Shown here one piece after another: positions 24,792 to 43,011 of a stretch of 64,000 bases of DNA. The position numbers and the translations under genes are program-made. The DNA comes from an uncultured Candidatus Micrarchaeota archaeon (lineage in GTDB: Archaea; Micrarchaeota; Micrarchaeia; Anstonellales; Bilamarchaeaceae): positions 5,851 to 69,850 of the forward strand of contig CAWDBH010000006.1 of NCBI GenBank assembly GCA_963800555.1, in the 5' to 3' direction. Each line of letters starts with the position of its first letter. Position 1 is the first letter of the stretch. Under the pieces are notes generated by a model. It did no database searches. It had not been told where the DNA came from and saw only the letters and a list, made by a program, of their open reading frames with translations.

Positions 24792-26099
24792 TCAAACTTT
24801 CTTATCGATGATGCTTCGGGCTATCTCGATGCTCCGCTTCAGCGTCCGGTTCTCGCTCTCGTCCTGGGCGATGAGCTCGGAATCTATCCGGTTCTTCATC
24901 GATACGAACGATTTCGCCTCGTCGTTAAGGACGTCGAGCCCCATCATGGTCGCTATCTCATCGTATCTCTGCCCTTCGGCATAGATCTTGTATATGCGAT
25001 CGGAGACTTCCTTGTGCTCCTTGCTCATCGCGAAATGCATCATCCTGGACAGCGAGGTTAGGATGTCCGTCGGCGGGTAGACGCCGCGGTTGTGCATGTC
25101 CATATTGAGTATAAGCTGGCCTTCGGAGATGTACCCGGTCGTGTCCGGTACAGGATGGGTAATATCATCGTTGGGCATGGTCAGGAACGGCAGCTGGGTT
25201 ATGCTCCCCGGCACGTCTTTCTGTAGCCCGCAGCGCTCGTACATGCTGGCCAAGTCGCTGAAAAGGTAGGACGGATACCCCTGGCGCACGGTGAGCTCCT
25301 CTTTAGCAGATGAGAGGTTCCTCAATGTATCGGCGTAATTAGTCATATCCCCTATTATCGCGAATACATCATAGCCCTTCTCGAAGGCGAAGTATTCTGC
25401 GGCCGTCAGCGCGTTCTTCGGAGCCAGCAGGGCTTCCCCAGGCGGGTCGCTCTCCGAATTCAGGAACAGCACGGAGTTGTTGGTTATCCTGAACTCCTCG
25501 AGCTTGGTGGTTATGTAATTCTCCTCATCATGGCTCAGGCCGATGCCCGCCATGACGACGACGAAATGGTTCTTCGAGTTCTGGATCGACTGGCGCATGA
25601 TCTGCATGATTATCTCCAGGAGCGGAGCGCCTACAGGGGAGAAAAGCGCCAGTTTCTGTCCCACCACGATGCTGTTGAGCAGGTCTATGGAGGATATCCC
25701 GGTCTCGATCAGCCTGCTCGGCACTTTGCGGTAGTAAGGGTTCAGGATCGAGCCGTTTATGTCCATCCTCCGGTTGGAGAATATCTCCAGCTTGCCATCC
25801 CTGCTCTCGCCCTTGCCATCGAAAATCCGCCCAAGCATGAGCTCGGAGACCGGAAGCTTGACAGTCTCGAAAGTCCCCCGGATGCCGACCTTCCGGCCCA
25901 GGCCCGAAGTGCCTTCGAAGACCTCGATGAAATAGACATCCCCGTCTATCGCTATGACGCGGCCCTTCCTTCGCTCGCCTTTAGATGTCAGTATGTACAC
26001 TATGTCGCCATAGGACGCCTCGATCCCCTCGGCGACCAGGATCGGGTCCTTTATCTCCTTCACGCTCGTGTAGCGGACAATCCTTTTCCAGTTAAACAT
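24792..26099 (-). CDS. atpB: A/V-type ATPase subunit B (divergent)
   Basis: IETGISSID, GQKL, GYPSYLFSDLASMYERCG, DITHPVPDTTGYISEGQ, SLSRM. Confidence 0.93.
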   Translation of the reverse strand: MFNWKRIVRYTSVKEIKDPILVAEGIEASYGDIVYILTSKGERRKGRVIAIDGDVYFIEVFEGTSGLGRKVGIRGTFETVKLPVSELMLGRIFDGKGESRDGKLEIFSNRRMDINGSILNPYYRKVPSRLIETGISSIDLLNSIVVGQKLALFSPVGAPLLEIIMQIMRQSIQNSKNHFVVVMAGIGLSHDEENYITTKLEEFRITNNSVLFLNSESDPPGEALLAPKNALTAAEYFAFEKGYDVFAIIGDMTNYADTLRNLSSAKEELTVRQGYPSYLFSDLASMYERCGLQKDVPGSITQLPFLTMPNDDITHPVPDTTGYISEGQLILNMDMHNRGVYPPTDILTSLSRMMHFAMSKEHKEVSDRIYKIYAEGQRYDEIATMMGLDVLNDEAKSFVSMKNRIDSELIAQDESENRTLKRSIEIARSIIDKKV

Positions 26100-27735
26100 A
26101 TGCCAACCGTTCCTTTATCTCCTTGAGAAGATTCTCTGCGCCTTTCTCATCGCTACCCTTCATGCCGCTTATCCTAGATTCGATTTCCTTGTCGAATTTG
26201 ATCTGGCCGGATTTGCGGAACACGGAGCTGATGAAAGCATGGTACTCCACGACCGCCTCGACCATCGCGGATGTCTTCAATCGCGAGCTGTAGACATCGT
26301 TTTCGTCATAGGCGTTCTGGACGAGGAAATCATTCCGGGCGATTCGCGTCACATGCAGGGTCATCTTCTGATCCGGGGACAGTGCTTCATAGCCGACTAT
26401 CTTCTCGACCTCTTCGATCTCGAACCCCTTCCCTATCAGGGTTCTCAGCATCTTGATGTTGGCTCCGGCTTTACCGCGGACATCATCCCAGCCCCCTACC
26501 AGATCGGTGAAATATTTCGAGAAGCTGATGCGCAGGTCGACGGCGGGGAAGATCCGCGCGTGGGCGAGGTCGGAGCTCATGAAGATGGCAACCCCCGCAG
26601 AACTGGCCGCGTACTGGGTTATAGGCTCGGAGAAGTCGCCGCTCGGCGGCGAGATGGACGCGATCATGGTGAGGCATCCTTTCTTCCCTCCCAAGGTCTC
26701 CACGCAACCTGACCTCGAGTAGAATTCCTTTATCCTTTCCTGCAGGTAAGGCGGGTAGCCTTCCTCAGCCGGGATGACTTCCATTATGCCTCCTACCTCT
26801 CTCAGGGCCTCAGCCCAGCGGCTCATGGAATCGACCATCAGGAGCACGCTTTTCCCGGTGTCGCGGAAGTACTCCGCTATAGTCGCCCCCGCATATATGC
26901 TGCTCTCGCGCGCGATGATAGGCATGTTCGATGTGTTCGCTATGACGGCGGTGTCATCCAGCTTCCCGCTTTCGCGCATGGTGCTGATGAAATCCGCCAT
27001 CTCGTTCCCCCTCTCGCCGCAGCCCACGAAGACCTTCAGGTTGGTGTCAGCGTATTCGGCGAAATTGTGCTGGAATGTCGTCTTGCCGGACCCGAACCCC
27101 CCCGGGATCGCGGTGGTCCCCCCTTTCTTCACCTGGAGGAACGCGTCTATGACCCGCTGGCCGGTCGTGAGCATCTCGTTCTCGAAGACGCGCTTCCTGA
27201 ACGGGCGCGGCTCCCGGATGGGCCACTCGTGGGACATCGCCACAGGTTTTCCGTCGACATGGCACACCGGCTCGTAGATCGTGAACTTGCCTTCGCTAAC
27301 ATCCTCCACGGCACCGGAGATATCCGGAGGGAGCAGTATCGCCTGGCCCTCCGCGGTCCCTATCGCCTGGCCGCCCGTGAGCTTCCCGCCTTTCTTGATT
27401 GCGGGCTTGAAATCGAATTTAGTTTTGAGCTTGTTGCCTATGGAAGCGGTATAGAACGGCCTCCCTTCGAGGGACATCTCCAGGCCGTCGAAGAAGTGGC
27501 CGAGTATGTGGGGGCCGACCTCCACGGTTATCGGCCGCCCGAGTTCCTCTACCTTGTCGCCTACCGACAGGCCGTCTGGGCTGGTGAACACCTGGATCGA
27601 GCAGATGCCATTGCCGAGGATATCGATTATCTCCCCATAGCCCTCTTCGCCAATGCGGACCGTTTCGTACATCCTGGCCGAGATTCCGCTGGCGCGGATG
27701 ATTATGCCCTTTATCGTGGTTATCTTCCCCATCAT
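26092..27735 (-). CDS. atpA: A/V-type ATPase catalytic subunit A (divergent, short)
   Basis: GGFGSGKT P-loop, GCGERGNEM, ANTSNMP, DSMSRWAEALRE, PAEEGYPPYL, GDFSEP. Confidence 0.95.
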   Translation of the reverse strand: MMGKITTIKGIIIRASGISARMYETVRIGEEGYGEIIDILGNGICSIQVFTSPDGLSVGDKVEELGRPITVEVGPHILGHFFDGLEMSLEGRPFYTASIGNKLKTKFDFKPAIKKGGKLTGGQAIGTAEGQAILLPPDISGAVEDVSEGKFTIYEPVCHVDGKPVAMSHEWPIREPRPFRKRVFENEMLTTGQRVIDAFLQVKKGGTTAIPGGFGSGKTTFQHNFAEYADTNLKVFVGCGERGNEMADFISTMRESGKLDDTAVIANTSNMPIIARESSIYAGATIAEYFRDTGKSVLLMVDSMSRWAEALREVGGIMEVIPAEEGYPPYLQERIKEFYSRSGCVETLGGKKGCLTMIASISPPSGDFSEPITQYAASSAGVAIFMSSDLAHARIFPAVDLRISFSKYFTDLVGGWDDVRGKAGANIKMLRTLIGKGFEIEEVEKIVGYEALSPDQKMTLHVTRIARNDFLVQNAYDENDVYSSRLKTSAMVEAVVEYHAFISSVFRKSGQIKFDKEIESRISGMKGSDEKGAENLLKEIKERLAYV

Positions 27736-28268
27736 TTCTCACCCATCGCCTTGTCCGCGTACAGCGGCAGGATGAACTCCTTGATGAAAGTCGGCGAGAA
27801 ATCCGCGTAAGCGTTGCCGCGGTATAGTTTGAGCTCCAGCTTCTTCTTGCTCAATTCCGTGGGAGACTCGGATTTCATGTAAGGATAGAATTCAGCGCTC
27901 GCGATCGCGCTCTCCGGCTTCCCGAACATCTGTTGGAACTTCGCCAGGGCGAATCGCGCGTAGTCTTTCGGGTGAGCACCTATCCTCTTCTCGGTTTTTT
28001 CCCATGCCCGGTTGAACGAGCTGATGAGCACCTTGTAATCCTCATAGAGCTCGGTGTAATCGTGCTCCCTTTTCAGGTATGCTTCGGAGTTCTTCAGTAT
28101 GGAATCGTAATATTCTTTCATTATGGCCTTCTTCCCATTCCTTTTCTGCTCGATGAGGGCGAGATAGGCGTTCTCCTTTTCCTTATAATGCTGGGCGATG
28201 CGCTCTTTGGCCTTTTTTTCCTCCGCGTCTATCACATTGAGGATGGCCTGCACGTTCCCTTCGATCAT
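27732..28268 (-). CDS. atpE: Probable A/V-ATPase subunit E
   Basis: N-terminal charged coiled coil, 178 aa, translationally coupled upstream of atpA. Confidence 0.6.
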   Translation of the reverse strand: MIEGNVQAILNVIDAEEKKAKERIAQHYKEKENAYLALIEQKRNGKKAIMKEYYDSILKNSEAYLKREHDYTELYEDYKVLISSFNRAWEKTEKRIGAHPKDYARFALAKFQQMFGKPESAIASAEFYPYMKSESPTELSKKKLELKLYRGNAYADFSPTFIKEFILPLYADKAMGEK

Positions 28269-28561
28269 AATTCGAGCACCTCGCCTATCGTCTCCTCGGC
28301 CTTTTTCAGGTACACTTTGGACTTGGAGGATTTGTACCGCTTGATGGATTCCGTCAGTGATTCGTTCAGTGCTGCTATGGCCCCTTCCGTTTTGGAGGAG
28401 AGGCCCTTCCGGGTCTTTTCCATGTCGGCCGAATACTCGTCATCTATCATCTTCTTCTTGTCGGCCCATCCCCGTGCCTCGGAGGCCTCGAAGTCGGTGA
28501 TGTTCTTCCGCATCCGCCCCTCGGCTTCTTTCAGGCGAGCTGCGACATCGTATATCTCCAT
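28265..28561 (-). CDS. Probable A/V-ATPase subunit H/G (peripheral stalk)
   Basis: 98-aa charged helix (LKEAE...), coupled to the E-like gene. Confidence 0.55.
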   Translation of the reverse strand: MEIYDVAARLKEAEGRMRKNITDFEASEARGWADKKKMIDDEYSADMEKTRKGLSSKTEGAIAALNESLTESIKRYKSSKSKVYLKKAEETIGEVLEL

Positions 28562-28603
28562 GGATTTCTAATAGGCGGCAATAATTAATATGTTTGGCTG
28601 TCA
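28562..28603. promoter_or_regulatory. Candidate bidirectional promoter of the two ATPase half-operons
   Basis: ~42-bp gap between head-to-head genes with a central AATAATTAATAT. Confidence 0.45.
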
Positions 28604-29239
28604 TTGAGGGTTGTGGACGAATACAGCGAAGTGCTGATTGGCATGACATGCGCGGTCTATGGATCGCGTATAATCCCCCAGGCGGCATTAGATGCGATGG
28701 AAGGCGAGAGGCTCCAGGACATCCTGCCCCAGCTGATTACTTTCGGCGAGGACGAGATTGTCGCGGCCCTAAGGAACGGGGACCATGCCGCTATCGATGT
28801 CTCCTGCGGGCGCGGCCTGCTGAAGTTCGTGAATGGTATATCGCTATACCTGCCCGATGGCATCGCTAAGATATGCGCTTATCTCTACGACATGTGGTTC
28901 CAGTACCTCTCCCGGGCGAACCGGCCCGCATCGACAAGCGCCGACAAGGATGATCCGGTGAATTACGGGAAGGAGGAATTCTCCAGGTTCGTGATGGACA
29001 AGATCACCGAAATGGCTTCGAAACTATCGCAGGAGGACCGCCTGGCGGTCAGGACGTTATCTTCGTTCGTGCTCTATAACCAGGGGATGAGGATCGCGGA
29101 TGATAAGCGGGCCCATGGCCTATGGGCGCTCATGGATCTCCTTTACCGGAAAACCGATGAGACCGAGCACCTCTCGCGTATCCTGCATACCATGCTCATA
29201 AGGGAAGAGATATGGAAGAAAAACCTGTTTGTCGGATAA
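28604..29239 (+). CDS. Possible reduced A/V-ATPase subunit C(d)
   Basis: Helical 211-aa ORF heading C?-F?-D-x-I-K; assignment by position only. Confidence 0.4.
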   Translation: MRVVDEYSEVLIGMTCAVYGSRIIPQAALDAMEGERLQDILPQLITFGEDEIVAALRNGDHAAIDVSCGRGLLKFVNGISLYLPDGIAKICAYLYDMWFQYLSRANRPASTSADKDDPVNYGKEEFSRFVMDKITEMASKLSQEDRLAVRTLSSFVLYNQGMRIADDKRAHGLWALMDLLYRKTDETEHLSRILHTMLIREEIWKKNLFVG

Positions 29240-29427
29240 AGGACGACTTCGTGCGCCAAGTCTTACTCATGATCGGCATATCCGAAGGTAAGAGCCGGTT
29301 CGTAATCTCGGACAACGAATCCGATAAATGGCAGGACGCCAATACCGTGGTCATCCCGCTCTATGACGCCAAGGAGTACATAAAAAAGAGGATACCCGAA
29401 TATGGTAGAGAAGTATACGAAGAGTGA
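29212..29427 (+). CDS. Possible reduced A/V-ATPase subunit F
   Basis: 71 aa; LLMIGI and VVIP..Y.K..I resemble subunit F motifs; directly before D. Confidence 0.5.
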   Translation: MEEKPVCRIKDDFVRQVLLMIGISEGKSRFVISDNESDKWQDANTVVIPLYDAKEYIKKRIPEYGREVYEE

Positions 29428-30004
29428 GCTGATTAAGCTCAGGAAGGAGCTCAAGACCCTCACGAACTCGAAGAGGCTACTGGAAGAGAGGAAGAAAGAG
29501 CTCTACCGCCTTTTCCGTTCGATGCTCAAGGAGCTTGCGATCCGGGAGGCCGAGTACAATTCGCAGCTGGCTAAGGTCAAGGATTCGGTTCTCACCGTAG
29601 CTGCCCAGCACAATTACATGGAAATCGTGGATGACGCATCCATACAACCGCAAGCCGTATGCACAGTCTCGAACCAAGTGTACATGAAAGGCGTCTTCGT
29701 GGAAGGTGGGAGCGTGGATTTCCCGGACCTCAAGGGTCAGTTCGTGTCGCAAGGCCTCAAGCGGGCTTTCCTGGCCGAGTTCAAATCGCTGATCGCGCTC
29801 GGGATACGTCTCGACAGCATCGTGAAAAAAGTCGTGGTGGTGAAGGACGAGCTCAAGAACGTGAGCAGGAAGCAGGGCTACATAGAGAATATCCTCATCC
29901 CGAGGGTTGAGGGGAACATAAAAATAATCGAGCGCATGTTCGAGGAGCGGAGAAGGGAAGAGCTCATAAAGGTCAAGAGATTCAAGAAGAAAGGTGTAAA
30001 ATGA
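29402..30004 (+). CDS. atpD: A/V-type ATPase subunit D
   Basis: TKSELIKLRKEL...LLEERK, ELKNVSRK..IENILIP, EERRREE. Confidence 0.88.
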   Translation: MVEKYTKSELIKLRKELKTLTNSKRLLEERKKELYRLFRSMLKELAIREAEYNSQLAKVKDSVLTVAAQHNYMEIVDDASIQPQAVCTVSNQVYMKGVFVEGGSVDFPDLKGQFVSQGLKRAFLAEFKSLIALGIRLDSIVKKVVVVKDELKNVSRKQGYIENILIPRVEGNIKIIERMFEERRREELIKVKRFKKKGVK

Positions 30005-30252
30005 AGCTCATCGACATACTTGAGTACGCAGTGCTCCTCGCTTTCATCTACACGTTCCTTTACGGGCCGGTCACCGGGAAACTATTCATAATGTACGTCT
30101 CGGTGCTCGGGTTCTTCATCTTCTCGGGAGCATCTTGGTTCGTATCGGCTGATACGCCCGTCGTGAAAGAGTACAAGCGGTATGCGATTTTCATAGAAGC
30201 GATTGCCGTCCTGATCGGGCTAATCATGATGGCGTATGTCTGGTTGTTCTAA
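30001..30252 (+). CDS. Small 3-TM protein inside the ATPase operon
   Basis: 83 aa hydrophobic ORF overlapping the D stop and the I start. Confidence 0.7.
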   Translation: MKLIDILEYAVLLAFIYTFLYGPVTGKLFIMYVSVLGFFIFSGASWFVSADTPVVKEYKRYAIFIEAIAVLIGLIMMAYVWLF

Positions 30253-31682
30253 TGTTCTCCACAAGGAACGTCTATAGGTTCGCGGTGCTCGTGCGCAAGA
30301 GCGATGCAGAGCGTACCATAGAGAAGCTGATCGCTCTGGGCGTCTTCCATCCGAAAAAGGTAGAGAAGAGCTTCGACGGGCCGTTCTCCTCCCGTTCAGC
30401 CACTCGCTTCCTCCCTTACGAAAAGAAGATTGCGGACATCACAGCGAAGATGGAGGCCGCAGGATTGACCTGCAGCGGAAGGCTGAAAATCGATGACCGG
30501 GACAAGTTCCTGGATTCCGCAGTAAAAGACCTCGCGACACTCGAGCAGAAGGCCGAAGCCAACAAGGCGGTCTCCGCGGATCTTCTGAGGCTCAAGGCTG
30601 CGTCAGAGCTCCTGGATTTCAAGAAAGCGGTGTCGGAGCTTTCCAAGTCGAGCGAGATGGCTGATGGATTCGTGATTATCGAGGGTTGGGTGGACAAGGG
30701 CAGCCTGCCGGTGCTGAAGAAGGAATGCGACGGTCCTAACACGCTCTTCGAATACATCGAAGGCGTAGATGGGCCGACGCTCCTGAAGAACCGATGGCCG
30801 TTCTCGCTGTTCGAATACGTGTCCAAGCTGTACCCGCCGTTCCGTTACGGTTCGGTTGACATAACGCCCATAATAGCCATCACATTCCCGATAATCTTCG
30901 GCGTGATGTTCGCGAGCGTTCTCGACGGGCTCATCCTTCTGATTATCGCAGCACTCTGGTATTGGAGGAGCAGAGGCGAGATGCCCCAGCTGCTCGCGAT
31001 ACTTGCGATGTCGGCGATATTCTTCGGATTCCTTTTCGGCGAATCGAGCTTTTTCGGCACGGGACCGGTCATAGACGTCTACAGCAATCCGATACTGCTG
31101 ATCGAGATAAGCATCGGCATCGGGTTCGTCCACATAACGATCGGCCATCTGCTCGGCATCGCCAATTGCCTCTCTGAAGGGAACAAGAAGGAGGCCGTGG
31201 CCCATGTCGGCTACATACTCCTCATGTTCTCCGCGCTCGCTTTCCTGCTCTCACCGCCCATTTCGTACGCGGGCATAGCTATAAGCGTCCTGATGATAAT
31301 CAGCGGAGGCGTAAAATCCATATCCGAAATCCCCCATGCGATAGGGCATCTCTTCTCCTATGCGCGCATATTCGCCATAAGCATTTCGCATTACAGCATC
31401 GCCGCGGTCTTCGACGCGCTGGCAGGGAAATTCGGATGGACGACCCCGGAGGGCATCCTCGTCTCTCTCATAATCCTGATGTGCGGGCATTTCATACTCC
31501 TGACCATCGAGCTGCTGATAGCCCTGGTCCATACGCTGAGGCTCCACATACTCGAGTTCGGGACGAAATTCATGTCCACCGGAACCGAATGGTTCAATCC
31601 TTATAAAGTGATGAATAGATATTCGGATGTGGGATCAGTTGGAAAAATGATCAAGAGGTCGTCTGATGCTGCTGTCACCTGA
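30252..31682 (+). CDS. atpI: A/V-type ATPase subunit I (a), shortened
   Basis: IEGWV, PTLLKN, FPIIFGVMF, SYARIFA (essential Arg), HTLRLHILEFGTKF. Confidence 0.92.
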   Translation: MFSTRNVYRFAVLVRKSDAERTIEKLIALGVFHPKKVEKSFDGPFSSRSATRFLPYEKKIADITAKMEAAGLTCSGRLKIDDRDKFLDSAVKDLATLEQKAEANKAVSADLLRLKAASELLDFKKAVSELSKSSEMADGFVIIEGWVDKGSLPVLKKECDGPNTLFEYIEGVDGPTLLKNRWPFSLFEYVSKLYPPFRYGSVDITPIIAITFPIIFGVMFASVLDGLILLIIAALWYWRSRGEMPQLLAILAMSAIFFGFLFGESSFFGTGPVIDVYSNPILLIEISIGIGFVHITIGHLLGIANCLSEGNKKEAVAHVGYILLMFSALAFLLSPPISYAGIAISVLMIISGGVKSISEIPHAIGHLFSYARIFAISISHYSIAAVFDALAGKFGWTTPEGILVSLIILMCGHFILLTIELLIALVHTLRLHILEFGTKFMSTGTEWFNPYKVMNRYSDVGSVGKMIKRSSDAAVT

Positions 31683-32370
31683 AATCATTGCGGTCATTGG
31701 CGCGCTGATAGCCATAATTGTACCTGGCGTGGGCTCAGGATACGCCATGCAACGGATAGGCGAACTATCGGAGACGCTGCTCAACACGAAGGTGAGCGGG
31801 TTCTTCACCAATTCCCTGGTCTTCTCGGTGCTCGCGGAGACCCCGACCATCTACGGCCTGCTCGTCGCCATACTTATTTTGATCACCATACCCAAAGGCC
31901 TTACAGAACCGCAAAGTTATGCTCTGCTATTATCCGCCATCCAGGTGGCCATACCCGGCATCGCCGCAGCCTACGCGATAGGCCTGGTCGCACAGGCCTC
32001 GCTCATAGCGATCAAGGAGAAGCCGGCCCTTTTCGGGAAGACGCTCATACTCTGCGCGCTTCCTGAGGCGATAGCCATCTACGGCCTGATAATCTCCCTC
32101 CTGGTGCTTCTCGGAGCGGGCGCCTTCGGGGTCGTGAAGGTTACCACTATGGACCAGGTCGGGTCGCTCGCAATCGTTACCATGATAATATCTGTCACGG
32201 CGGTGGTGGCCATATTCATCGGGAGGATAGCCGTCAGCGCTGTGAAGTCCCTGCTCACCAACGAAGGGGCGTTCACCCAATCGCTGATAATCGCCGTCCT
32301 GCCGGAATCAATCGCCATCTACGCCCTGCTCGTGGCCGTGCTGATACTATCGAACAGCGGCCTGGTCTGA
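31666..32370 (+). CDS. atpK: A/V-type ATPase proteolipid subunit K(c), three fused hairpins
   Basis: LAETPTIYGL, LPEAIAIYGL, LPESIAIYAL. Confidence 0.92.
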   Translation: MLLSPEIIAVIGALIAIIVPGVGSGYAMQRIGELSETLLNTKVSGFFTNSLVFSVLAETPTIYGLLVAILILITIPKGLTEPQSYALLLSAIQVAIPGIAAAYAIGLVAQASLIAIKEKPALFGKTLILCALPEAIAIYGLIISLLVLLGAGAFGVVKVTTMDQVGSLAIVTMIISVTAVVAIFIGRIAVSAVKSLLTNEGAFTQSLIIAVLPESIAIYALLVAVLILSNSGLV

Positions 32371-33676: not shown

Positions 33677-36600
33677 ATGGCGCAAAAGGAGATCGAGCCT
33701 TCTCAGCAGCTGCTGGACCAGACCGGCCAGAAGCGGGACCTCTCCGTAGTGCCGCAGATCAGGCCAATCGATATCAAGAACGATATCGCCCGCTCATCAT
33801 CCGCCCTAGACAAGATGGACATACCAGCCCTCGGAATGAGATTCAAGGCCGAGCTCGAACGCACCAGGGAGCTGCTGAACGCATCCAAGGACGCGGTTTC
33901 CCTAGATAAAGCGAAGGAGAGGATCGAGCGCCTCTCCGGATTCTTCAAGGCCGAGAGCGGCATCCTGGGGAACGTCCCATCCGAGCTGCCCAGACGCTTG
34001 ACGCTCGAAAAGATAATCGATGCGATAGACTCCACGCTCGGCGATCCCGTCCGCGCGAAATCCGTGCTCGAGGCCGCGTCGCTGTACATTGCGCATGCGG
34101 GCAGGTACAACGCAGAGCGCGCCGAGCGGGACGCGCTTTTCGATTTCATGGTAGATAAGGGTGCCGCAGCCGGCTCCCCGTACAACAGGCTGGATGAAGG
34201 CATCCTGCGCTCGTTCCAGGCGAACGCCCTCATCATGGAGGATAACGAGAAGAAATTGGTCGCCGCCTGGCGCAAGGAGATCTCGCGCCAATTGCCCCTT
34301 GTGAAAAGCCCTTCGGTGGCTGGCGCCCTCAAGTCATTGGACCAGGATCCTGAAATCGAACGATATCAATGCCGAGGAATCCGCGCAGCGCTACCGCGCC
34401 ATCATGGGCATCGCCCCCCCGCTCACCGCGGAGACGAGGCTCGGGTCCATGCGCGATTCCGCGTTCGAGCTCTCGAACAAGGCGGGCGATACTGGCTGGT
34501 ACGGGACGAAAGCCCTCGAGGCGCTAGATTCCGGGGATTCCGGCATGGCGTCGCTGGCGCTTTCCATGGGCATGCTCAGCAACGCATCAGGTTCACAGTA
34601 TCTCGTTCCGGGGACTCGCAAGGAGATATCGGAGAAAATCATCAAGCGCGAGGCAATACCCCGCCCGCAGCTGAGCCGCTATCTGGACGAGGTGCATTCC
34701 GCGACCATACTGGTGGAGAGCGCGCGATTGGAGCGCGAGGCGCCGCTGGTCGGCACGCAGGAGCGCAGATCCATGGCCGAGACGATCCGCCTGGCAGCGA
34801 CCGAAATCCGCGAGCGCGCATCGGACGGGGATCTGGAATCCGCGAGGCGGCTGATAGAGATGGCAGATGGCTATTCCCGGCTCGTCAAGGCGAATGGCTG
34901 GAAGGCGTGGCCTGGCTCGTCGGAGATGGCAGCGGGGCTGCGCGAAGAGCTCAAAGGAAATGATGGCACGGCGGCTTTCGAGGCGGGGCTCGCGGTTTCG
35001 TCTTTCGCAGGCGAGACCAAAGAGTTCCGCGCCGAGATCTCGAAATGGGGGCACGGCTTATCATCGGAGAAGGAAGCCGTCTCCGAGGCGCTGTCGAAAG
35101 TGGACGAGCTCGCAGGTTCGGGGGGGTCCGCTGAAGCGAGGCGCGTGCTCTCATGCGCGGTGATGTACGCCGATGCGGTCGTCCGCCTCAGCAACGTAGG
35201 GCGTGGGAGCCCGTCCGAGATAGACGGGCACGTCCCTCCGGGCATCCTCGTAGGCATGGAATCATCGCTCTCCGCTATCATATCCGGGGATGTCGCGGGA
35301 AAAAGCGCCGAGGACGCTTTCATGGCCGGGTATTCGGCATGCATGCAGACATACGCCACGCTGCGCGCGAGCTCTTTATCATCGCTCATGCGAACCCGTC
35401 CTGCGGGGCAGGAGACGATCAAGGCAGCGCTCGAGGAATCGAGATCCAGGAGTGCGGCCGGGGATTTCCCGGGCGCGATTAGCCTGCTGACCTATGTCGA
35501 GGAGTTCTACGGCCCGCGCACTCCGAAGGCCGCAGCCGGCTGGAGATACGACCAGCTCAATTCCAAGGTCGACGGGTTCAGCCGCGGCAGGGACGGGATG
35601 GTACAGGCCATCGCTGCCGAGCTCAGAGCATCCAAACAGGATGGGCATGCTTCAGCGGAGAGGCTTTTCGACAGCTCGTTATCGCTCATATCAAGCACGC
35701 AGAACATGGTCGCCGGATTCGGCGTCCTCAAGGACATGTACTCGGGGAAGGTCCCGATGCTGCCGAAAGTGGCGGCAGGGGAGGTCCCGCTCGGAAATCT
35801 TCGCAAGGACGGCACCTACCAAGTCATACCATTGGAGCAGGTGAAGCGGTTCGAGGCGGATCCGTCCATGAAGAAAGGCCCGCGGCTGGAGAAGCTCCTG
35901 GACGATTGCCGCGCCGCCGCGCAGAGCGGAGATGCGGATGCGTACGGCCGCGCGGTGAAGGCGTTCAACGAACGTTTCGGGCTCGTCACGAACGGGGCCG
36001 TGAGGGCGCGGGCGTTCTCGGATGCGGCCAAGCAGGTGGACCAGGCGATGCTCGGCATCGGCCAGATGCGCGAGGTGTACGGGTCGGGCAAGGGAAGGGA
36101 CGATATCCTGGTCGCGCTCGGGCTGAAGGCGATCGAGATACGGGACAAGCTGGCGAAAGGCAAATTCCCGGAAGCGGAATTGGCATCGCTGATATCCGAC
36201 CTCGGCACAGAGCGGAAGCTCGCGATGGGGGTCAGCCTGCTGAACCAGCAGATAGGCGTCGGAGACGAATATTCCAAGTATGCCAGGTCCGAGAACGAGC
36301 CCCAGACCGTGGCGCATCTGGCACGCTCCATGGAGAGCCTGCTCCAGGCGAAGAGCCTGCTGATCGCAGGGAAAGCCGATGAGGCGCGTGGGAAATACGA
36401 GGCCGCGATGCATTACCGCACCAACGCGCTCATCTCGTACAGCGCCGAGAACGCTGTGAACCTGGAGGTCACGGCCACGGCCCACCGGAGGCGGCCCGGG
36501 CCGAGCGGGATAGACGAGCGCTTCTTCCCGGCATTCTGGTACAAACGGCAGGAGGCGGAGTTCGGCGGCTATTTCTCATCGATGATGGGCGTATTCGATT

Positions 36601-38903
36601 CGATGGTCGGAGGAGAGCTCACCAAGCAGGCGCGGGACGCGGGTAGGGGCTCAATGCTAGTGGAGAGCTCAATATTCGGGGTGCCTGCGAACGCCCCGAG
36701 CCAGTTCCTGGACAGCTTCAGGCGGGAGCAGGGCGAGGTCAGGAACCGGGTGCTGCACGGCGATCTCGCTGGCGCGGAGCGGATAGTCAAGTCCATGCAG
36801 GAGCGCGCGGAGACGAACCGGTGGGTCGCGAACGCAGCGCTCATCGGAGTCGGATTGGGGACCGCGTTCATACCTGTCGTAGGGGTATGGATATCCGGTT
36901 CCATATTCACGGGGATGGCCGTGGACCGGATCGCGACGGAATACCGGCGCGACGGGCATGCGTCAACCGAAGCATGGCTCATGCTCGGCCTCACGGTCGG
37001 TACGTTGGGTATTGGAGTGGCCGCGAGCGCCACCGCGCGCATGGCTAACCTCGCAGGGACCGCAGCTAGGACGAGCAGGCTGCTCTCGCTCTCAAAAGGA
37101 TTCACATACGCCAACATCGGCGTCGGCTCATTCATGTTCGGGTACATGGGCGCGAGCACCTGGAGCGTCTACCAGGATTACAAGGCAGGGAACGCGCACT
37201 CCAGGGATGTCATATTATCCGCAGGCATGACGCTCTTCCCTGTCGTGCACATGACCGTGTCCGGCGTCTCGGCTTATCGGGCCAGGACCGTGGCCGCGCG
37301 GGCGGGCCAGATCCTGCCTACTGATCCGGAGTTCGATCCCACGCCCGGCAGGTTCAATACTACGGAGGTCCAGGTGCCCGGGTTCGACTCGCCCGAAGGC
37401 ATATTCGGATTCATGCAGCGCCTTTCCGGCCAGGACCCGCTGGCGGTCGCGCAGTTCGGGCGGCTCCCAGCTCCGACCAGGTCCGCCTTGGTTTCGTGGA
37501 TGAGCAAGCAGGGCCCGGTGCGCACTGCCCTGGAGGCCGGCACGCCAAACGACCTCGCCATGCGGGGCATACGCGATGGCATGCCGCAGCACGAGACCCG
37601 CGCCCAGGCCGACATGGTGCTGCTCACAGACCGCGCGCAGCTGGCCGGATTGCTGAGGGATATCCTGAACCCTGGCAAGACTCCCGGCGAGCTTTCGCAG
37701 AGGAACGCCGCGCACGCGACACTGGAGAGGATACGCGCTTCGAATCCCGATGCGGCACGATACATCGACCGGCTAGTGAATGACGAGGCTTACAGCGGCT
37801 TGAGGTTGGATCTGCTTTCGGGTAAGCCGCTCTCGCAAAGGAGCGTCACGATCCTGCAGAACAATTCTGTCTTGATAGGCGCGGAGCTGCCCCAGGAGAT
37901 GCGGCCCATCGCGGCGGCAATGGGAGAAAGGGAGCCGACCCGGGCCAGCGCAGGAGACGAATCCGGAAGGAAAACAGAGCCCAGGATGGGAAGCGTTACC
38001 CCAACCCGCGGCGAATCGGTTGAGGTCGAGGGTACATCAAAAGCTCCGGAAACTACCCCGAAGGAGAAGATCAAACTCACGGTCGAAGAGAGCAAAGCGT
38101 TCGTGGACAATCCTAAAACGGTCGTAAGAGGGCTCGGCCTCGACCCGGTCGTGGAGGATATAGCCGTCAACAACATAGCTGAGGATAGATGGCTTGATCC
38201 TGCGAACAAGCAACAGGCCGAGATGAATCGGGATCGAGCGCTAGTATATGCTGAGATGGATAAATATTTCCGGGATGCTGCCAAGGAGCTCGGCTGGAGC
38301 CAGGACGCGATCAACCAGTATTCCAAATCGTTCATCTCATTGCTGGACATATCTGAAAGGAACGGTTACACGACTTACGGCCATTCGATGCGAGTGGCGG
38401 AGTATACAGATATGGTGCTGAGGGGCAGGGCAGACATATCTCCTAAAGAAAAGGCCAAGATACGGCTCGCCGCGCTCATCCACGATGTCGGGAAAATCGG
38501 GGTGGCGAATGATCTGTGGCGATTCCCCAGTATCCCCCCAGACTCAGACAAAATCCTGATAGATGCCCATTCTACCCATTCCAAAACAATAGCTGATGGG
38601 CTTTACGCCAGGATCGGCATTGTCAATGAAAAGGAATTCAAGGATATTTCAACAATGGCCGGATACCATCAGGAATATTACGATGGCACGAAGCATAATC
38701 ATGTGAAGGGCAATAATATTCCACTGGGGACAAGGATAATATCAATCGCAGATACGTATGATGCTATGACATCTAACCGATCATACAGGAAAGCGTTACC
38801 CTCAGAAACCGGAATTAATCAAATCCAGAAATTTCGTGACATCCAATTTGATCGGAAACTTGCTGATGAATTCGTCGAGCGCATTAAAGAGAAAGGAAAG
38901 TGA
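33677..38903 (+). CDS. Giant (~1740 aa) helical membrane protein with a C-terminal HD-GYP-like domain; +1 frameshift near 34342-34346
   Basis: ORF 33677 joins ORF 34404 if one base is removed at GACCAGGATC; hydrophobic cluster ~36820-37270; HSMRVA, IHDVGK, HQEYYDG, ADTYDAMTSNRSYRK. Confidence 0.75.
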
Positions 38904-38906
38904 TAA

Positions 38907-39536
38907 TTATAGTATGCCGGCCCTGATTAGACCGAGCGTCACCCCACCAATTGACTGTGGAATCACGTGCATCACCCCGAATCTTCCTTCAGCTCTAGCA
39001 CCAAAATCAAGAAGGTAATTTAGCATATCCTTTTTCTCATTAATGGGGCTGCAGTGAAAAATAGCCATGGTCGCTTCCTCAATGACTTCCTTCCTGTCTT
39101 CCGCAAAAATCATTTTCTCCATCCGTTCGACGAAATCCTCCGGCTTGGGGAATGGTCCTGCGTTAGAGGTCGTGCACAAAGCCTTGATCAGCCCGAGTTT
39201 CACTTCCCTGTCCGGCTCCTTCTCGATCGCGGTGATCAGGGGTTCGAATGAATATTGGGCTATTAATTTTTTGGTAATAACCTCTCCCGACTTGGTTTCA
39301 TCTGGTTTTTTGGTTAGCAGCCCCTTCAGCATCGCTGCCCCACTCATACGTGAGGTCGTATCTCCTCCAGATATCAGGCGGAGCGCTTCATTCATGCTAC
39401 CTTTAGAAGCGGAATCACTAGTCGGTCCCTCTTGCATACCCTGCGTTCTACGAAGAGCTGTTTGTGGGTGTGCACTGGGAGAAGTTGAATCTGCCTCGGC
39501 CGGCCTTCTGCGTCTGTTCATCTCTGTTTGAGCCAT
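38907..39536 (-). CDS. HEAT-repeat-like protein, paralog 1
   Basis: EAL..I...D...R..GA, FEPL..A.E.EPD.EVK..L.KAL. Confidence 0.75.
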   Translation of the reverse strand: MAQTEMNRRRRPAEADSTSPSAHPQTALRRTQGMQEGPTSDSASKGSMNEALRLISGGDTTSRMSGAAMLKGLLTKKPDETKSGEVITKKLIAQYSFEPLITAIEKEPDREVKLGLIKALCTTSNAGPFPKPEDFVERMEKMIFAEDRKEVIEEATMAIFHCSPINEKKDMLNYLLDFGARAEGRFGVMHVIPQSIGGVTLGLIRAGIL

Positions 39537-39611
39537 ATTTACCAAATATAATTATGCTTGAAACAGTATAAAAAAGTATGGTTTTGGTCTATGTAATGAT
39601 ATGGAAGTAGT

Positions 39612-40166
39612 TCACAATATGAAAGTGAGCGCGGCCCATCTTGTATCCACCGTTACGATATCCATTATCGCCCCGCTGATCGCGAGCACGACCTGCTCAC
39701 TGACCTCCAGAGCGATATACCTGCGTCTGATATCTCCCTCCAGGGCAATCAGCCTTTCCATCGCATCAGTTCTGTCGTAGCTGAAATGGTGGAGGGCCAG
39801 GGCCGCTTCCCAGACTACTTTATCGTCTCTCTCCCTGCGGATCAATCTCTCGAGGCGCGGGACGGTGTCGCCCGGCCTTCGGAAATCCTGAGTCGGGATC
39901 GAATTGAGCACCTTGAGGAGATGGTACCTCACTTCAGCATCAGGCTCTCTTTCAGCAGCCACCAGCGCGGGTTTGAACGCCATCGGGGACCCGAGTTTCT
40001 CCAGGGTCTTCGCCCCCTCCAGCCGCTCTTTCCTATCCTGCAGGGTTATCTGGAGGAGGGCCTGCTGCAACCCGCCGGCTTCTTTCTGCGCGGCGAATTC
40101 CCGCTGTTTCGGTTTGGATCTAAATGGGATTATGTCTGCCTCTCTCCCTCCGCCCATCAGCTCCAT
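39612..40166 (-). CDS. HEAT-repeat-like protein, paralog 2
   Basis: QALLQIT.QDRKERLEGA, AFKPAL.AAEREPD.EVR..LLKVL. Confidence 0.75.
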   Translation of the reverse strand: MELMGGGREADIIPFRSKPKQREFAAQKEAGGLQQALLQITLQDRKERLEGAKTLEKLGSPMAFKPALVAAEREPDAEVRYHLLKVLNSIPTQDFRRPGDTVPRLERLIRRERDDKVVWEAALALHHFSYDRTDAMERLIALEGDIRRRYIALEVSEQVVLAISGAIMDIVTVDTRWAALTFIL

Positions 40167-40268: not shown

Positions 40269-40820
40269 TCATTTGCACAATTCGACCATCACGTCCAGGA
40301 TCGCAACCCGAACAATATGGTCGTTCCCGAATCTGCGCTTCGCCTTGTCATTCAATCTCAAAACATTCTCCGGGGCAGTGGGGTTGTCATTGCTCAGACG
40401 GAAGATCGCCCGGGCAGCTTCCCTGACCACGTTCGCATCCGTTTCCTTAAGGGTAAGCTCCTCAATACGCTGTATCGTATTCGCTGGCATGGTGAACTGC
40501 AACGGGGCCGAGCCCAACGCCTTTAGGAAACTGCGTTTTACCTCCTTATCCCGCTCGCTCTCAGCCAGGGTAAGCAGCGGATCGAACGCTCTCTCGGCAA
40601 GCTTCGGGTCGATAGGCTCCTTCGACATAAGCCTCATGATCGTTTCCGCGCCCTTGATCCTCCGTTCCGGAGACTGCCCGCATATCTGCATGAGCGCTTC
40701 CTCCAATTCAGCGTTTCCCTCGAACCTGGCGAACTCCTGTCTCCCTCCAACTAATCCAGGAGGTGCATTTGTCTTGATGCCACTAGATTCCAATCCGGTC
40801 CTCTTCGCTGATCTGGCCAT
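40269..40820 (-). CDS. HEAT-repeat-like protein, paralog 3
   Basis: EALMQI....E.RIKGA, AFDPLL...ESERDKEVK..FLKAL; likely start MARSAK. Confidence 0.75.
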   Translation of the reverse strand: MARSAKRTGLESSGIKTNAPPGLVGGRQEFARFEGNAELEEALMQICGQSPERRIKGAETIMRLMSKEPIDPKLAERAFDPLLTLAESERDKEVKRSFLKALGSAPLQFTMPANTIQRIEELTLKETDANVVREAARAIFRLSNDNPTAPENVLRLNDKAKRRFGNDHIVRVAILDVMVELCK

Positions 40821-40842
40821 ATCATCAAGCCTTTCCGCTCTC

Positions 40843-41436
40843 TTATATCTCGTCCGATTCGAGTAGGTGGGTGATCGCAACCGCAATCCCTTTCGAGATC
40901 GCATGCTCTTTCCCGTGCGCTTCCTCCGCCCGGTCCCTTATTCTGATCATATACGCTAATCCGTCGCTTCTATCATGCGGGCCATGCAGATAAAGCGCTA
41001 TAGCAGCTTGCCTGGCTATAAGCATATCTGTTTCAGTCGAATCGGTTCCCGCAACTTCCGTTAAGATGAGATTTTCCAGACGTTCGACCATATTCAGCGG
41101 CTTTTCCACGTCCCGCGCCCTCGAGGTCGCGCATAGCGCTTTGAGCAGTTGGAGCTTCACTTCCTTGTCCTGCTCTTTCTCAACCGCTTCGAGAATGGGT
41201 GTGAACGACTTGCCTGACCTCAGTTTCTTAAGGCTCACCGCCCCGTCCAGCCTTTCTTTCCTATCATCCTGTGTTATCCGGAAGAGAGCATCCTGTATGT
41301 CGGCCTTTCCCTTCTCGGTGACGAGGAAAAGATTGCGATCCCGTTGCGCGTGCGCTATCTTTTGGGTATCTGTTTCGGGCAAGGCCTGCACGGGTATTGG
41401 CCCCGAGTGCTTCCCACCTCTGCCAGTGAACGTCAT
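40843..41436 (-). CDS. HEAT-repeat-like protein, paralog 4
   Basis: DALFRITQDDRKERLDGA, SFTPILEAVEKEQDKEVK..LLKAL. Confidence 0.75.
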   Translation of the reverse strand: MTFTGRGGKHSGPIPVQALPETDTQKIAHAQRDRNLFLVTEKGKADIQDALFRITQDDRKERLDGAVSLKKLRSGKSFTPILEAVEKEQDKEVKLQLLKALCATSRARDVEKPLNMVERLENLILTEVAGTDSTETDMLIARQAAIALYLHGPHDRSDGLAYMIRIRDRAEEAHGKEHAISKGIAVAITHLLESDEI

Positions 41437-41535: not shown

Positions 41536-43011
41536 TCATGCAGTCTCGGGCCCGGTGCGGTCCGTCTTGACGCCATAATCCGCGGCTTCGGCCGCGAACC
41601 AGCTTCCGTACTTGTCACGCACCTTCTCCTCTATGGGCTTGTTCTCCTTTATCGCGATCTCGACATCCTTCTTCTCGATGAGGTCCTTCTTGGCCGTGGT
41701 CGCCATGTCCCCGGCCATCTTGATTATGCCGGTCAGGTTCCTGAGCCTGAGCGTCAAACCCTTCGCGTTGTCCACGCGGCGGGCGATGTCCCGCGCTTCG
41801 TCCAGCATAAGCATCACGGCTTTCCTGTCCGCATGCGGGATCTTCCCGTCCTTGATTATCTCCTGCGCGACGAATTGTACCAAGCTCTGCTGGTTAGGTG
41901 CGGTGTCATCCATGTATGCGTTCATGAGGACCTCGTATCCATCCCCGCGTATCCTGGAACGCAGGGGGGGCGTTATGTGCTTGATGTCGTTGATGTTGCA
42001 CGCGCCGACGAACAGGAAATCGCACGGCACTCCTTCCACCCTGACCGAAGCGCCGCTGCTCATCGGGTTCCTGCCGACTATGGTGAACACCTTGTCCTGC
42101 ATCGCCGTGAGTATATATCTCTGGAGATTGCCGAGGGTGGAAAGCTCGTCTATGAAGAGGACCCCTTCGTGGGCCTCATGGACCGCGCCCGGAACCACCC
42201 TCGAGTAAGTAAGTGTTCCGATGACGTTATGACCGCCGTAAGGGTCATGGCGTATATCCCCGAGCAGTTCGGTCTCGCTCCCTCCGCTGGCCTGGACGAA
42301 TGTGGTGCGGGTGAGCGAGGCGATTACCTTCCTCTTGGATTTCTTCGCCAGCTCCTTCGCCATCTCCTCCATCTTCTTGAGCTCCTCCTGGCGGAGGACT
42401 ATGATCTTGCCTTCGGCATTGCGTTCGTATATCAGGACCTCTTCCCTGCCCTCGGGGCTCCTGCGGGTCGTCGCGACCCTGACATGGTCCCCTTCAGGCG
42501 GCGGCACATTCATCTGGGGTGGCGCGTATCTGTCGAAAAGCCCGCCGCGTTGCACCTTGTCGGCTCCGCATTGAGGGCAGACCAGGTCCGTGAACGGGCT
42601 CATGGCGCCGCATCTGCGGCATCTGTACCCTAGCCGCTCAGCCACGAAACTAGGGGTATCCAGAGGAGAGACCTCCTTCCCGAATTGCCTCCCTTGCTTC
42701 TTCTCCTCTTTCTTGTCCCTCTCTATCTGCTCTTCATCCCGGACCACCACGATCGGGCGCTCGGGGTTATCAGTATTCTCCATGACGGATATCTCGTATT
42801 TCGGCTTGGGCAGGACGCTCGCTATGGCCTGGGCAATCATGCTTTTCCCGGTTCCTGGCGGGCCAACGAGGAGTAGATGCCTCCGCTGGTACGGCACCAT
42901 CTTGGCTATCTCGACCGCCTCCGGCTGGCCTATTATCCGCTCGAAGGGGTCTTTGGGTATGATTACGTCTTTGGTGGTTTCGAAGTCCAGAGCCATGATG
43001 TGATTATCCAT
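41536..43011 (-). CDS. LonB-related AAA+ ATPase lacking the protease domain, with a zinc-ribbon insertion
   Basis: FETTKDV.IP, GPPGTGKS, CRRC..CPQC, GAVHEAHEGVLFIDE, VPCDF, LRSRIRG.GYEV, LTLRLR; ends before any Ser-Lys protease domain. Confidence 0.88.
   Translation of the reverse strand: MDNHIMALDFETTKDVIIPKDPFERIIGQPEAVEIAKMVPYQRRHLLLVGPPGTGKSMIAQAIASVLPKPKYEISVMENTDNPERPIVVVRDEEQIERDKKEEKKQGRQFGKEVSPLDTPSFVAERLGYRCRRCGAMSPFTDLVCPQCGADKVQRGGLFDRYAPPQMNVPPPEGDHVRVATTRRSPEGREEVLIYERNAEGKIIVLRQEELKKMEEMAKELAKKSKRKVIASLTRTTFVQASGGSETELLGDIRHDPYGGHNVIGTLTYSRVVPGAVHEAHEGVLFIDELSTLGNLQRYILTAMQDKVFTIVGRNPMSSGASVRVEGVPCDFLFVGACNINDIKHITPPLRSRIRGDGYEVLMNAYMDDTAPNQQSLVQFVAQEIIKDGKIPHADRKAVMLMLDEARDIARRVDNAKGLTLRLRNLTGIIKMAGDMATTAKKDLIEKKDVEIAIKENKPIEEKVRDKYGSWFAAEAADYGVKTDRTGPETA

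Follow-up and report, generated by a model that had tools for sequence, protein, structure and literature searches.

A giant helical carrier protein with an exchangeable HD-GYP-like tip and facing HEAT-like partners in a Micrarchaeota archaeon: a likely polymorphic toxin-immunity system

The window analysed here, 64,000 nucleotides from an uncultured Candidatus Micrarchaeota archaeon (GenBank assembly GCA_963800555.1, contig CAWDBH010000006.1, positions 5,851 to 69,850; source genome 1.46 Mb, 86% complete), carries at 33677-38903 a gene for a giant helical carrier protein which ends in an HD-GYP-like domain and is faced by four genes for HEAT-like proteins. We propose that the protein is likely a toxin passed from cell to cell and that the facing genes supply its antidote, because its relatives share the carrier, bear different enzyme ends and in several cases have a facing partner of their own; we place the probability of a polymorphic toxin-immunity system at about 0.65. 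The carrier is modular, its C-terminal end (the tip) has been exchanged between near-identical carriers, the partners are matched to the tips, and the same HD-HEAT pair recurs as a standalone cassette, both in this genome and in others.

A set of 88 distinct carriers was obtained from 115 by removing six (fewer than 120 aa past the hydrophobic block, or no match to that block) and 21 duplicates. Of these carriers 44 bear at their end a helical domain, here called K, 32 bear enzyme domains, single or stacked, and 12 have unassigned ends, many of them truncated. The enzyme tips were of five kinds, HD-GYP-like, HipA/PI4K-like kinase, GGDEF-like, GNAT and RelA/SpoT, with the HD tips (n=5) and the single RelA/SpoT tip (E 1.6e-15) recognised by Pfam. 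The names GGDEF-like, kinase and GNAT rest on motifs and predicted fold, since sequence-profile searches of the PDB with these three alignments gave nothing significant and a profile comparison of the GGDEF-like tip with the GGDEF proteins of the genus was weak (probability 18%, E 0.0014). The kinase tips carry the motifs vK, DRHxxN and IDxD and lie nearest to the named atlas clusters HipA_2, PI3_PI4 and LepB_N (0.90-0.91). The model of the L044 end (predicted local distance difference test, pLDDT, 82) matched a GGDEF-like fold (Z 9.9, root-mean-square deviation 3.0, 145 residues aligned) and a GNAT fold (Z 10.2, deviation 4.2, 138 aligned). Profiles for tips and partners were built from family members and match those members by construction. 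Two carriers, P0183 with a kinase tip and P0184 with a GGDEF-like and a GNAT domain, share 96% identity up to residue 807, beyond which they are unrelated, and the carrier tree, from which eight short rows were left out, requires 24 tip changes where the least possible is 12. The family thus has the constant N-terminal region and varied catalytic C-termini of polymorphic toxins; tip replacement and standalone cassettes are seen in P0183 and P0184, in the tree, in the HD-HEAT cassettes and in the compositional step described next.

The proportion of G or C at third codon positions (GC3) is 0.795 (930/1170 codons) upstream of the linker and 0.537 (139/259) in the tip (Fisher p 1.6e-16), which is the largest drop among the 75 open reading frames (ORFs) of at least 700 aa in the genome. 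The step sets in at about 37.9 kb, falls to 0.42 past 38.55 kb, and the next gene still stands at 0.51; the closest relative, L022, has the same fall, from 0.81 to 0.61. A first-pass annotation, made from the sequence alone, had suggested a polymorphic layout with AT-richer tip DNA from about 38.2 kb. GC3 confirmed the step and moved its start upstream. The layout itself is supported because the C-termini differ among relatives (32 of the 88 are enzyme-tipped, 44 end in K, and the tips of P0183 and P0184 are unrelated) and because the step is measurable; neither of the two results that the annotation had named as contrary, a uniform C-terminus and no GC step, was obtained.

The annotation had missed the genes that face the carrier gene. 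These four HEAT-like paralogues are 27-35% alike where aligned, the first lying 3 bp from the stop codon of the tip. A HEAT gene stands tail-to-tail with the HD gene at 10 of the 10 HD-subfamily loci examined, three of which were found through the partner alone; this count leaves out 11 weaker HEAT-profile matches, the HD hits in G052 and G115, and the context of the P-numbered proteins. L022 and all five standalone HD loci of the genus are arranged in this way. When 99 genomes of the family were searched with the partner profile, strong matches appeared only in the five HD-bearing genomes of the genus and in G246, G247 and G113, and in all three of the latter the HD gene is again tail-to-tail with its partner. 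Other tips have partner families of their own, the GNAT type at 3/3 loci and the kinase type at 4/4 loci with a complete 3' end, and a 6841-aa carrier in G018 (L050:6179 to L051:8896, contig G018:C22) with one GNAT and three kinase domains is faced by one GNAT-type, three kinase-type and one unassigned gene. Two orphan kinase-type partner genes lie in this same genome at G000:C9:9377-11212 (minus strand) with no kinase gene nearby, and the K loci among L021-L054 have no partner family. By genome context, the HD, GNAT and kinase tips thus have the adjacent, tandem and orphan genes that mark immunity proteins in polymorphic toxin systems. This genome also holds a second carrier, kinase-tipped, as two pieces at the end of contig C4 (L059:5787-8195) and the start of C10 (L056:1247-5097), the ends of which overlap with a frameshift; a kinase-type partner faces it.

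Support for binding comes from structure prediction. The tip modelled together with the first partner, d1, gave a complex score of 0.85, the best of three controls giving 0.00, and across runs at least 94% of contacts agreed with a partner pLDDT of at least 82. Of 157 solved complexes 116 attained the mark set for this score, as did 2 of 215 mismatched pairs; with the alignments used here these counts hold only roughly. The modelled interface takes in Q191, D218, R227, Y229, R230 and loop 143-149, which include metal-site and guanine-binding residues, and d1 is accordingly predicted to cap the HD active site. No similar complex was found in searches of the PDB, and model memory of one may still apply.

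Pfam recognised HD_5 (E 2.8e-14) and HD (E 7.2e-12) at 38373-38861, and the tip shows the HD fold together with the RxY[K/R] motif and the C-terminal extension that HD-GYP enzymes have. The motifs listed in the annotation (HD, D-x-x-D-A-M, R-x-Y-R, YHQE and KHN) were all found again on re-reading: HD, D-T-Y-D-A-M and R-S-Y-R are kept, HHE has become HQE and GYP has become KHN, giving HQEYYDGTKHN where the HD-GYP signature is HHExh(D/N)GxGYP. The Gln codon of HQE is covered by contigs of runs X1 and X6, from two studies, with no other letters. HQE is present in 5/6 sequences of the tip clade, 4/7 standalone relatives and 1/119 other HD-GYP hits, and Gln is the sole substitute seen at this middle His in the HD subfamily; the standalone relatives retain GxGYP, and L022 reads HHE. 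HQE therefore reads as a clade variant and not as decay, as it is common to most of the clade and the other metal ligands are kept.

Eight of the ten catalytic and metal positions of the phosphodiesterase PmGH (D183, H189, H221, D222, K225, H250, H276, H277, D305 and D308) are kept in the tip, with D183 replaced by Gly, judged by spacing, and H277 by Gln. In the available part of the PmGH study D183 and H277 are each essential, D183A and H277A abolishing activity (PMC4159591). These replacements, the loss of GYP and KPG, and the retention of HHE and GYP by 116 of the 119 other HD-GYP hits would all suit a tip that is catalytically dead and serves as a nucleotide-binding or decoy domain. We regard this as very improbable, as H95, H128, D129, K132, H157, H190, E192, D218 and R227 are invariant in an alignment of 45 rows, PmGH mutants in GYP and in R314/K317 are still active (PMC4159591, same part), and the placing of a partner over the active site by the model hints at an activity worth blocking. 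The description 'degenerate' in the annotation is apt for the residues that PmGH needs to hydrolyse cyclic di-GMP (c-di-GMP), which are changed, and misplaced for HQE, which the clade shares, and for the metal ligands, which remain. On sequence, c-di-GMP hydrolysis by the tip is doubtful, and the tip appears to be an HD-GYP enzyme in fold that falls outside strict membership. The odds are about even for a phosphodiesterase or nucleotidase of the two-metal kind, with a substrate that would be a nucleotide containing guanine or a cyclic dinucleotide, not necessarily c-di-GMP.

The best solved-structure match of the tip is the 3'3'-cGAMP (cyclic GMP-AMP) phosphodiesterase 5z7c (E 1.5e-24). The specificity position is R, K or N across the clade, and N there is linked to cGAMP preference in the available part of 10.1101/2021.11.05.467447 (section 6); R-x-x-N is found in L022, P0177 and P0133, and R-S-Y-R in this copy. 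Together with the dependence of cultured DPANN archaea on hosts, as described in the literature available in part, these points would fit a non-lethal effector directed at a host, with a tip that destroys the host's cyclic dinucleotide alarm or biofilm signals and a partner that shields the nucleotides of the producer. Such an effector would share its delivery with the toxin that we propose and differ in its target. We consider it improbable: partner genes that are orphaned or multiplied imply toxins arriving from kin, the lineage has no known host, and some Micrarchaeota orders have been proposed to be less host-dependent (PMC12892359, in the available part of which the word 'toxin' occurs 0 times). 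The partner genes and orphan partners suggest conflict among kin at least as much as action on a host.

The tip groups with standalone HD proteins of about 330 aa from contig C15 of this genome and from G004, G005, G020, G028, G246 and G247, and with a G113 protein of 615 aa; this group (support 100/99) excludes 16 other HD-GYP hits. Fused HD tips are also present in L022, P0133, P0157 and P0177. Thus a resident archaeal HD-GYP-like subfamily is shown, where archaeal HD-GYPs from metagenome-assembled genomes were earlier treated as possible contamination. That earlier caution, and the errors that this assembly does contain, might suggest that the fusion is a misassembly or of bacterial origin through contamination; the chance of this is negligible, as four independent fused homologues refute misassembly, the archaeal neighbour genes are syntenic with L022 and the HD subfamily forms a group of its own. 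A recent bacterial origin of the tip was rejected, since the best hits outside the clade show an identity of about 40% and the tip clusters with the standalone copies that are resident. Disagreement between tip and carrier trees within the HD clade was left unused, its support being weak (85/79).

The assembly errors do touch this gene. The annotation had taken it as one span and overlooked a frame break: the window holds two overlapping frames and not a single ORF, an ATG frame from 33677 and another that runs open between 34305 and its stop at 38903. The break at 34349 is likely an assembly error of one extra base, because that base is absent from contigs of three runs (X1 and X2 of study P1, X5 of study P2; run X3 has no coverage of the position) and because L022, 65% identical over the full length, is continuous at 1738 aa. 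Read through with X at the break, the protein has 1741 aa. At 37582 run X5 has a loose end that had hinted at a different tip; runs X6 and X7 show a diverged strain that continues the same gene.

The carrier was modelled with AlphaFold2 as 999 aa, and 34404-37400 is predicted to be almost wholly helical (mean pLDDT 85; 52-75 in the hydrophobic part), with 13% Ala, 10% Ser and 10% Gly. Hydropathy in 19-residue windows gives three peaks above 1.5 in the hydrophobic block (2.08, 1.63 and 1.51), the five Gly/Ala-rich helices at 36801-37298 are likely to insert into membranes, as judged by sequence, and a P-x-x-G motif is conserved within the hydrophobic hairpin. The linker at 37914-38123 is rich in Glu, Thr, Lys, Pro and Ser. 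Model, composition and Pfam agree with the order read in the annotation, of about 1000 aa of Ala-rich helices, a Gly/Ala-rich hydrophobic cluster, a low-complexity linker and an HD tip. By hydropathy the carrier family has no N-terminal signal peptide, the scaffold has no Pfam family, and Foldseek returned no match to the model at E 0.001 or better. A VIA fold match (best Z 10.8) was discarded, the matches being generic helical bundles below the level that is meaningful for helical proteins.

The hydrophobic region was matched in 27 of 36 genomes of the same genus; 24 genomes from the order's remaining families gave 0 matches. With a profile, matches were found in 9/27 genomes of the family and 2/9 of one other family, with none further among 200 genomes of the class, and 80 representatives were retrieved from 1.84 billion proteins. 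A helical gene of about 107 aa lies directly upstream of the carrier at 32 of 38 loci, and four copies lie elsewhere in this genome. Type VI secretion system (T6SS) effectors use small dedicated upstream Eag chaperones, and the placement of the ~107-aa gene resembles that of an Eag gene. For most K-type members the surroundings form a stable operon: a giant, the ~107-aa gene, the carrier, an SGNH/GDSL-type gene and another giant, whose start is signal-like. The proteins of the SGNH/GDSL-type gene share their N-terminus, and 12 of 18 scanned contain the SGNH/GDSL domain. The K domain, the small protein encoded upstream and the upstream giants matched no Pfam family. No phage-sheath gene was matched in this genome, which is 86% complete, and five HerA/VirB4-like ATPases were found, none at this locus.

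Some further observations concern these loci. The operon with its SGNH/GDSL-domain gene and signal-like giant is conserved at L058 (G000:C9:44000-63999) and the K loci L024-L049. A K-type carrier piece lies on contig C9 of this genome, where the K gene adjoins a duplication, inverted and frameshifted, that lies close to the end of the contig and is probably a misassembly. G033 has two tandem K-type carriers (L028:3-12328 and L027), about 70% identical in the K domain. Two more copies of the ~107-aa gene precede giants at L055:3652-16474 (1257 and 2917 aa) and L057:6947-11253 (1310 aa); these match no carrier profile, and the 1310-aa protein shares a short stretch with the P0199 tip.

The proposed mechanism can be put as follows. 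The giant carrier would bring an exchangeable HD-GYP-like enzyme into neighbouring cells. Having no signal peptide, it may be exported by a dedicated route aided by the ~107-aa protein, which here would act in trans; its hydrophobic hairpins would enter the membrane of the target and let the tip through into the cytoplasm, where it would hydrolyse a nucleotide of the target cell. In the producer the four HEAT-like proteins would block the tip, d1 covering the metal site and guanine-binding residues and d2-d4 perhaps protecting against variant tips of kin. Tip and partner may have been captured jointly from the pool of standalone cassettes by recombination in the linker.

A number of observations weigh against this reading. 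Half of the family (44/88) ends in the non-enzymatic K domain within a stable operon, and this copy is not swapping rapidly, as its closest relative, L022, has the same tip. Among the tips Pfam detected neither a nuclease nor a deaminase nor an ADP-ribosyltransferase, and a processing protease was likewise not detected. The partners lie opposite the presumed toxin gene rather than after it, four loci ending in GGDEF-like domains (L039, L081, L082 and L083) share no partner, so that the matching of partners does not extend to that tip kind, and L080 has a kinase-type partner with no kinase detected. This gene and L022 are without the ~107-aa upstream gene, the atlas leads for the hydrophobic block (PT-TG, DUF4225 and DUF4781) are weak, all below 0.9, and the altered D183 and H277 positions belong here as well. 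Finally, GGDEF, HD-GYP and kinase tips are also classic signalling outputs, and GGDEF proteins occur in 26 of 40 genomes of the genus, with GGEEF intact in the 12 best loci (L126-L137).

The last two points, the missing signal peptide and the existence of HD-HEAT pairs with no carrier are what could be expected of a self-acting system, in which the protein stays in the membrane of its producer, the helices sense or scaffold, and the HEAT partner restrains the tip, which would be a cytoplasmic output of a signalling or toxin-antitoxin-like kind. We judge this unlikely, though it is the alternative to be taken most seriously: immunity accounts for one partner per enzyme domain, for orphans and for four diverged copies better than regulation does, and the hydrophobicity of the helices is only weak. 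The two genomes that hold this tip show no more than a degenerate or weak match to GGDEF, and G005 and G028, which have standalone HD genes, show none. The GGDEF copy of the present genome (L118:1231-2304, minus strand) is degenerate and without the motif. Weak GGDEF matches in G034:C4:25718-25996, G009:C5:46489-46827 and G012:C13:17867-18238 lie in frames of 5706, 4683 and 3377 aa. The available main text of a 2026 paper on archaeal GGDEF proteins (PMC13725321) does not name Micrarchaeota.

Polymorphic toxin systems, as described in the available portion of PMC3482391, resemble the present one in a constant carrier, a variable C-terminal enzyme, standalone cassettes, adjacent partners and tandem or orphan arrays, and include HEAT repeats among their immunity proteins. 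They are described there as rare in archaea, the cases named being methanogens and haloarchaea, and 'HD-GYP' is absent from the portion covered. In contrast, the carrier described here matches no known trafficking or stalk family, its partners are convergent and no nuclease tips were found. With the HD-GYP phosphodiesterases PmGH (4MCW) and V-cGAP3 (5Z7C) the tip shares the HD fold and C-terminal helices, five metal ligands and the equivalents of K225, D308 and RxY[K/R]; it differs in HQE for HHE, in lacking GYP, KPG, D183, E185 and a sensory domain, and in having a subfamily-specific N-terminal extension and a dedicated HEAT partner. Homologues of the T-domain of large clostridial toxins, which are translocases with hydrophobic hairpins, likewise have weakly hydrophobic helices, a conserved P-x-x-G and varied cargo (PMC6978384, available in part). 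Here, however, the cargo is C-terminal, and P-x-x-G is the only motif shared, with no sequence match and no fold match to a hydrophobic part modelled at pLDDT 52-75. The SPEARE proteins of Nanohaloarchaeota (PMC6642349, in part) likewise come from DPANN archaea, are giant, combine membrane helices with a terminal enzyme and have a proposed role between cells; they have adhesion, protease and conserved restriction-enzyme domains, whereas the present carrier is helical with a variable enzyme end, and Pfam found only HD in this protein and no SPEARE-type domain in 47 whole relatives. In carrier, convergent partners and set of tips the family appears distinct from polymorphic toxin systems and SPEARE as described in the portions available, and it follows the logic of the former. 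No published description of the carrier family was found; a 2019 mBio survey of archaeal polymorphic toxins and Table S4 of an HD-GYP preprint (70 archaeal ORFs) may bear on its novelty. Further literature for comparison, available in part, is PMC13725321 and 10.1101/2023.11.21.568195.

The action of DPANN archaea on neighbours and hosts is little understood, and the carrier offers a candidate delivery protein found throughout a family. More tentatively, and with somewhat less than even chances, this Micrarchaeota lineage may possess a delivery system of its own, made up of the helical carrier, the ~107-aa chaperone and the K-type operon, armed with HD-GYP-derived and other toxins alongside its own GGDEF cyclases. 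If so, the toxins would attack nucleotide signalling and protein modification, among them an HD-GYP-derived toxin with a HEAT immunity protein, and the operon would comprise a giant K-type carrier, an SGNH hydrolase and an exported giant. The candidate HD/HEAT, kinase and GNAT pairs of enzyme and blocker are small and soluble, and lend themselves to tests in E. coli with no need for a culture of the archaeon.

Table 1. Positions in the window of the carrier gene, its segments and the facing genes.
Feature	Position	Strand	Remark
Whole gene, about 1741 aa	33677..38903	+	Extra base at 34349 (likely assembly error) breaks the frame in the assembly
All-helical carrier scaffold	33677..36800	+	No signal peptide, Pfam family or specific fold match
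Hydrophobic block: five helices rich in Gly and Ala, weakly hydrophobic; hairpin with a conserved P-x-x-G (Pro at 36873)	36801..37298	+	
Helical segment after the hydrophobic block	37299..37913	+	Common to relatives with different tips
Low-complexity linker	37914..38123	+	Start of the GC3 step and of the drop in identity to relatives
Tip: helical extension of about 80 aa and HD-GYP-like domain	38124..38903	+	
Tip motifs	HD at 38481, HQE at 38667, RSYR at 38778	+	
d1, HEAT-like partner	38907..39545	-	Tail-to-tail with the tip, 3-bp gap; likely cognate immunity protein
d2, paralogous HEAT-like partner	39612..40166	-	Pfam HEAT_2, E 2.9e-10
d3, paralogous HEAT-like partner	40269..40904	-	Real start probably within the frame
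d4, paralogous HEAT-like partner	40843..41436	-	

Beyond the partner genes, 41536-43011 of the window (minus strand) encodes a LonB-like AAA+ protein of 491 aa in which Pfam finds no protease domain, and 24792-32370 holds an A/V-type ATPase cluster, recognised from sequence, on both strands.

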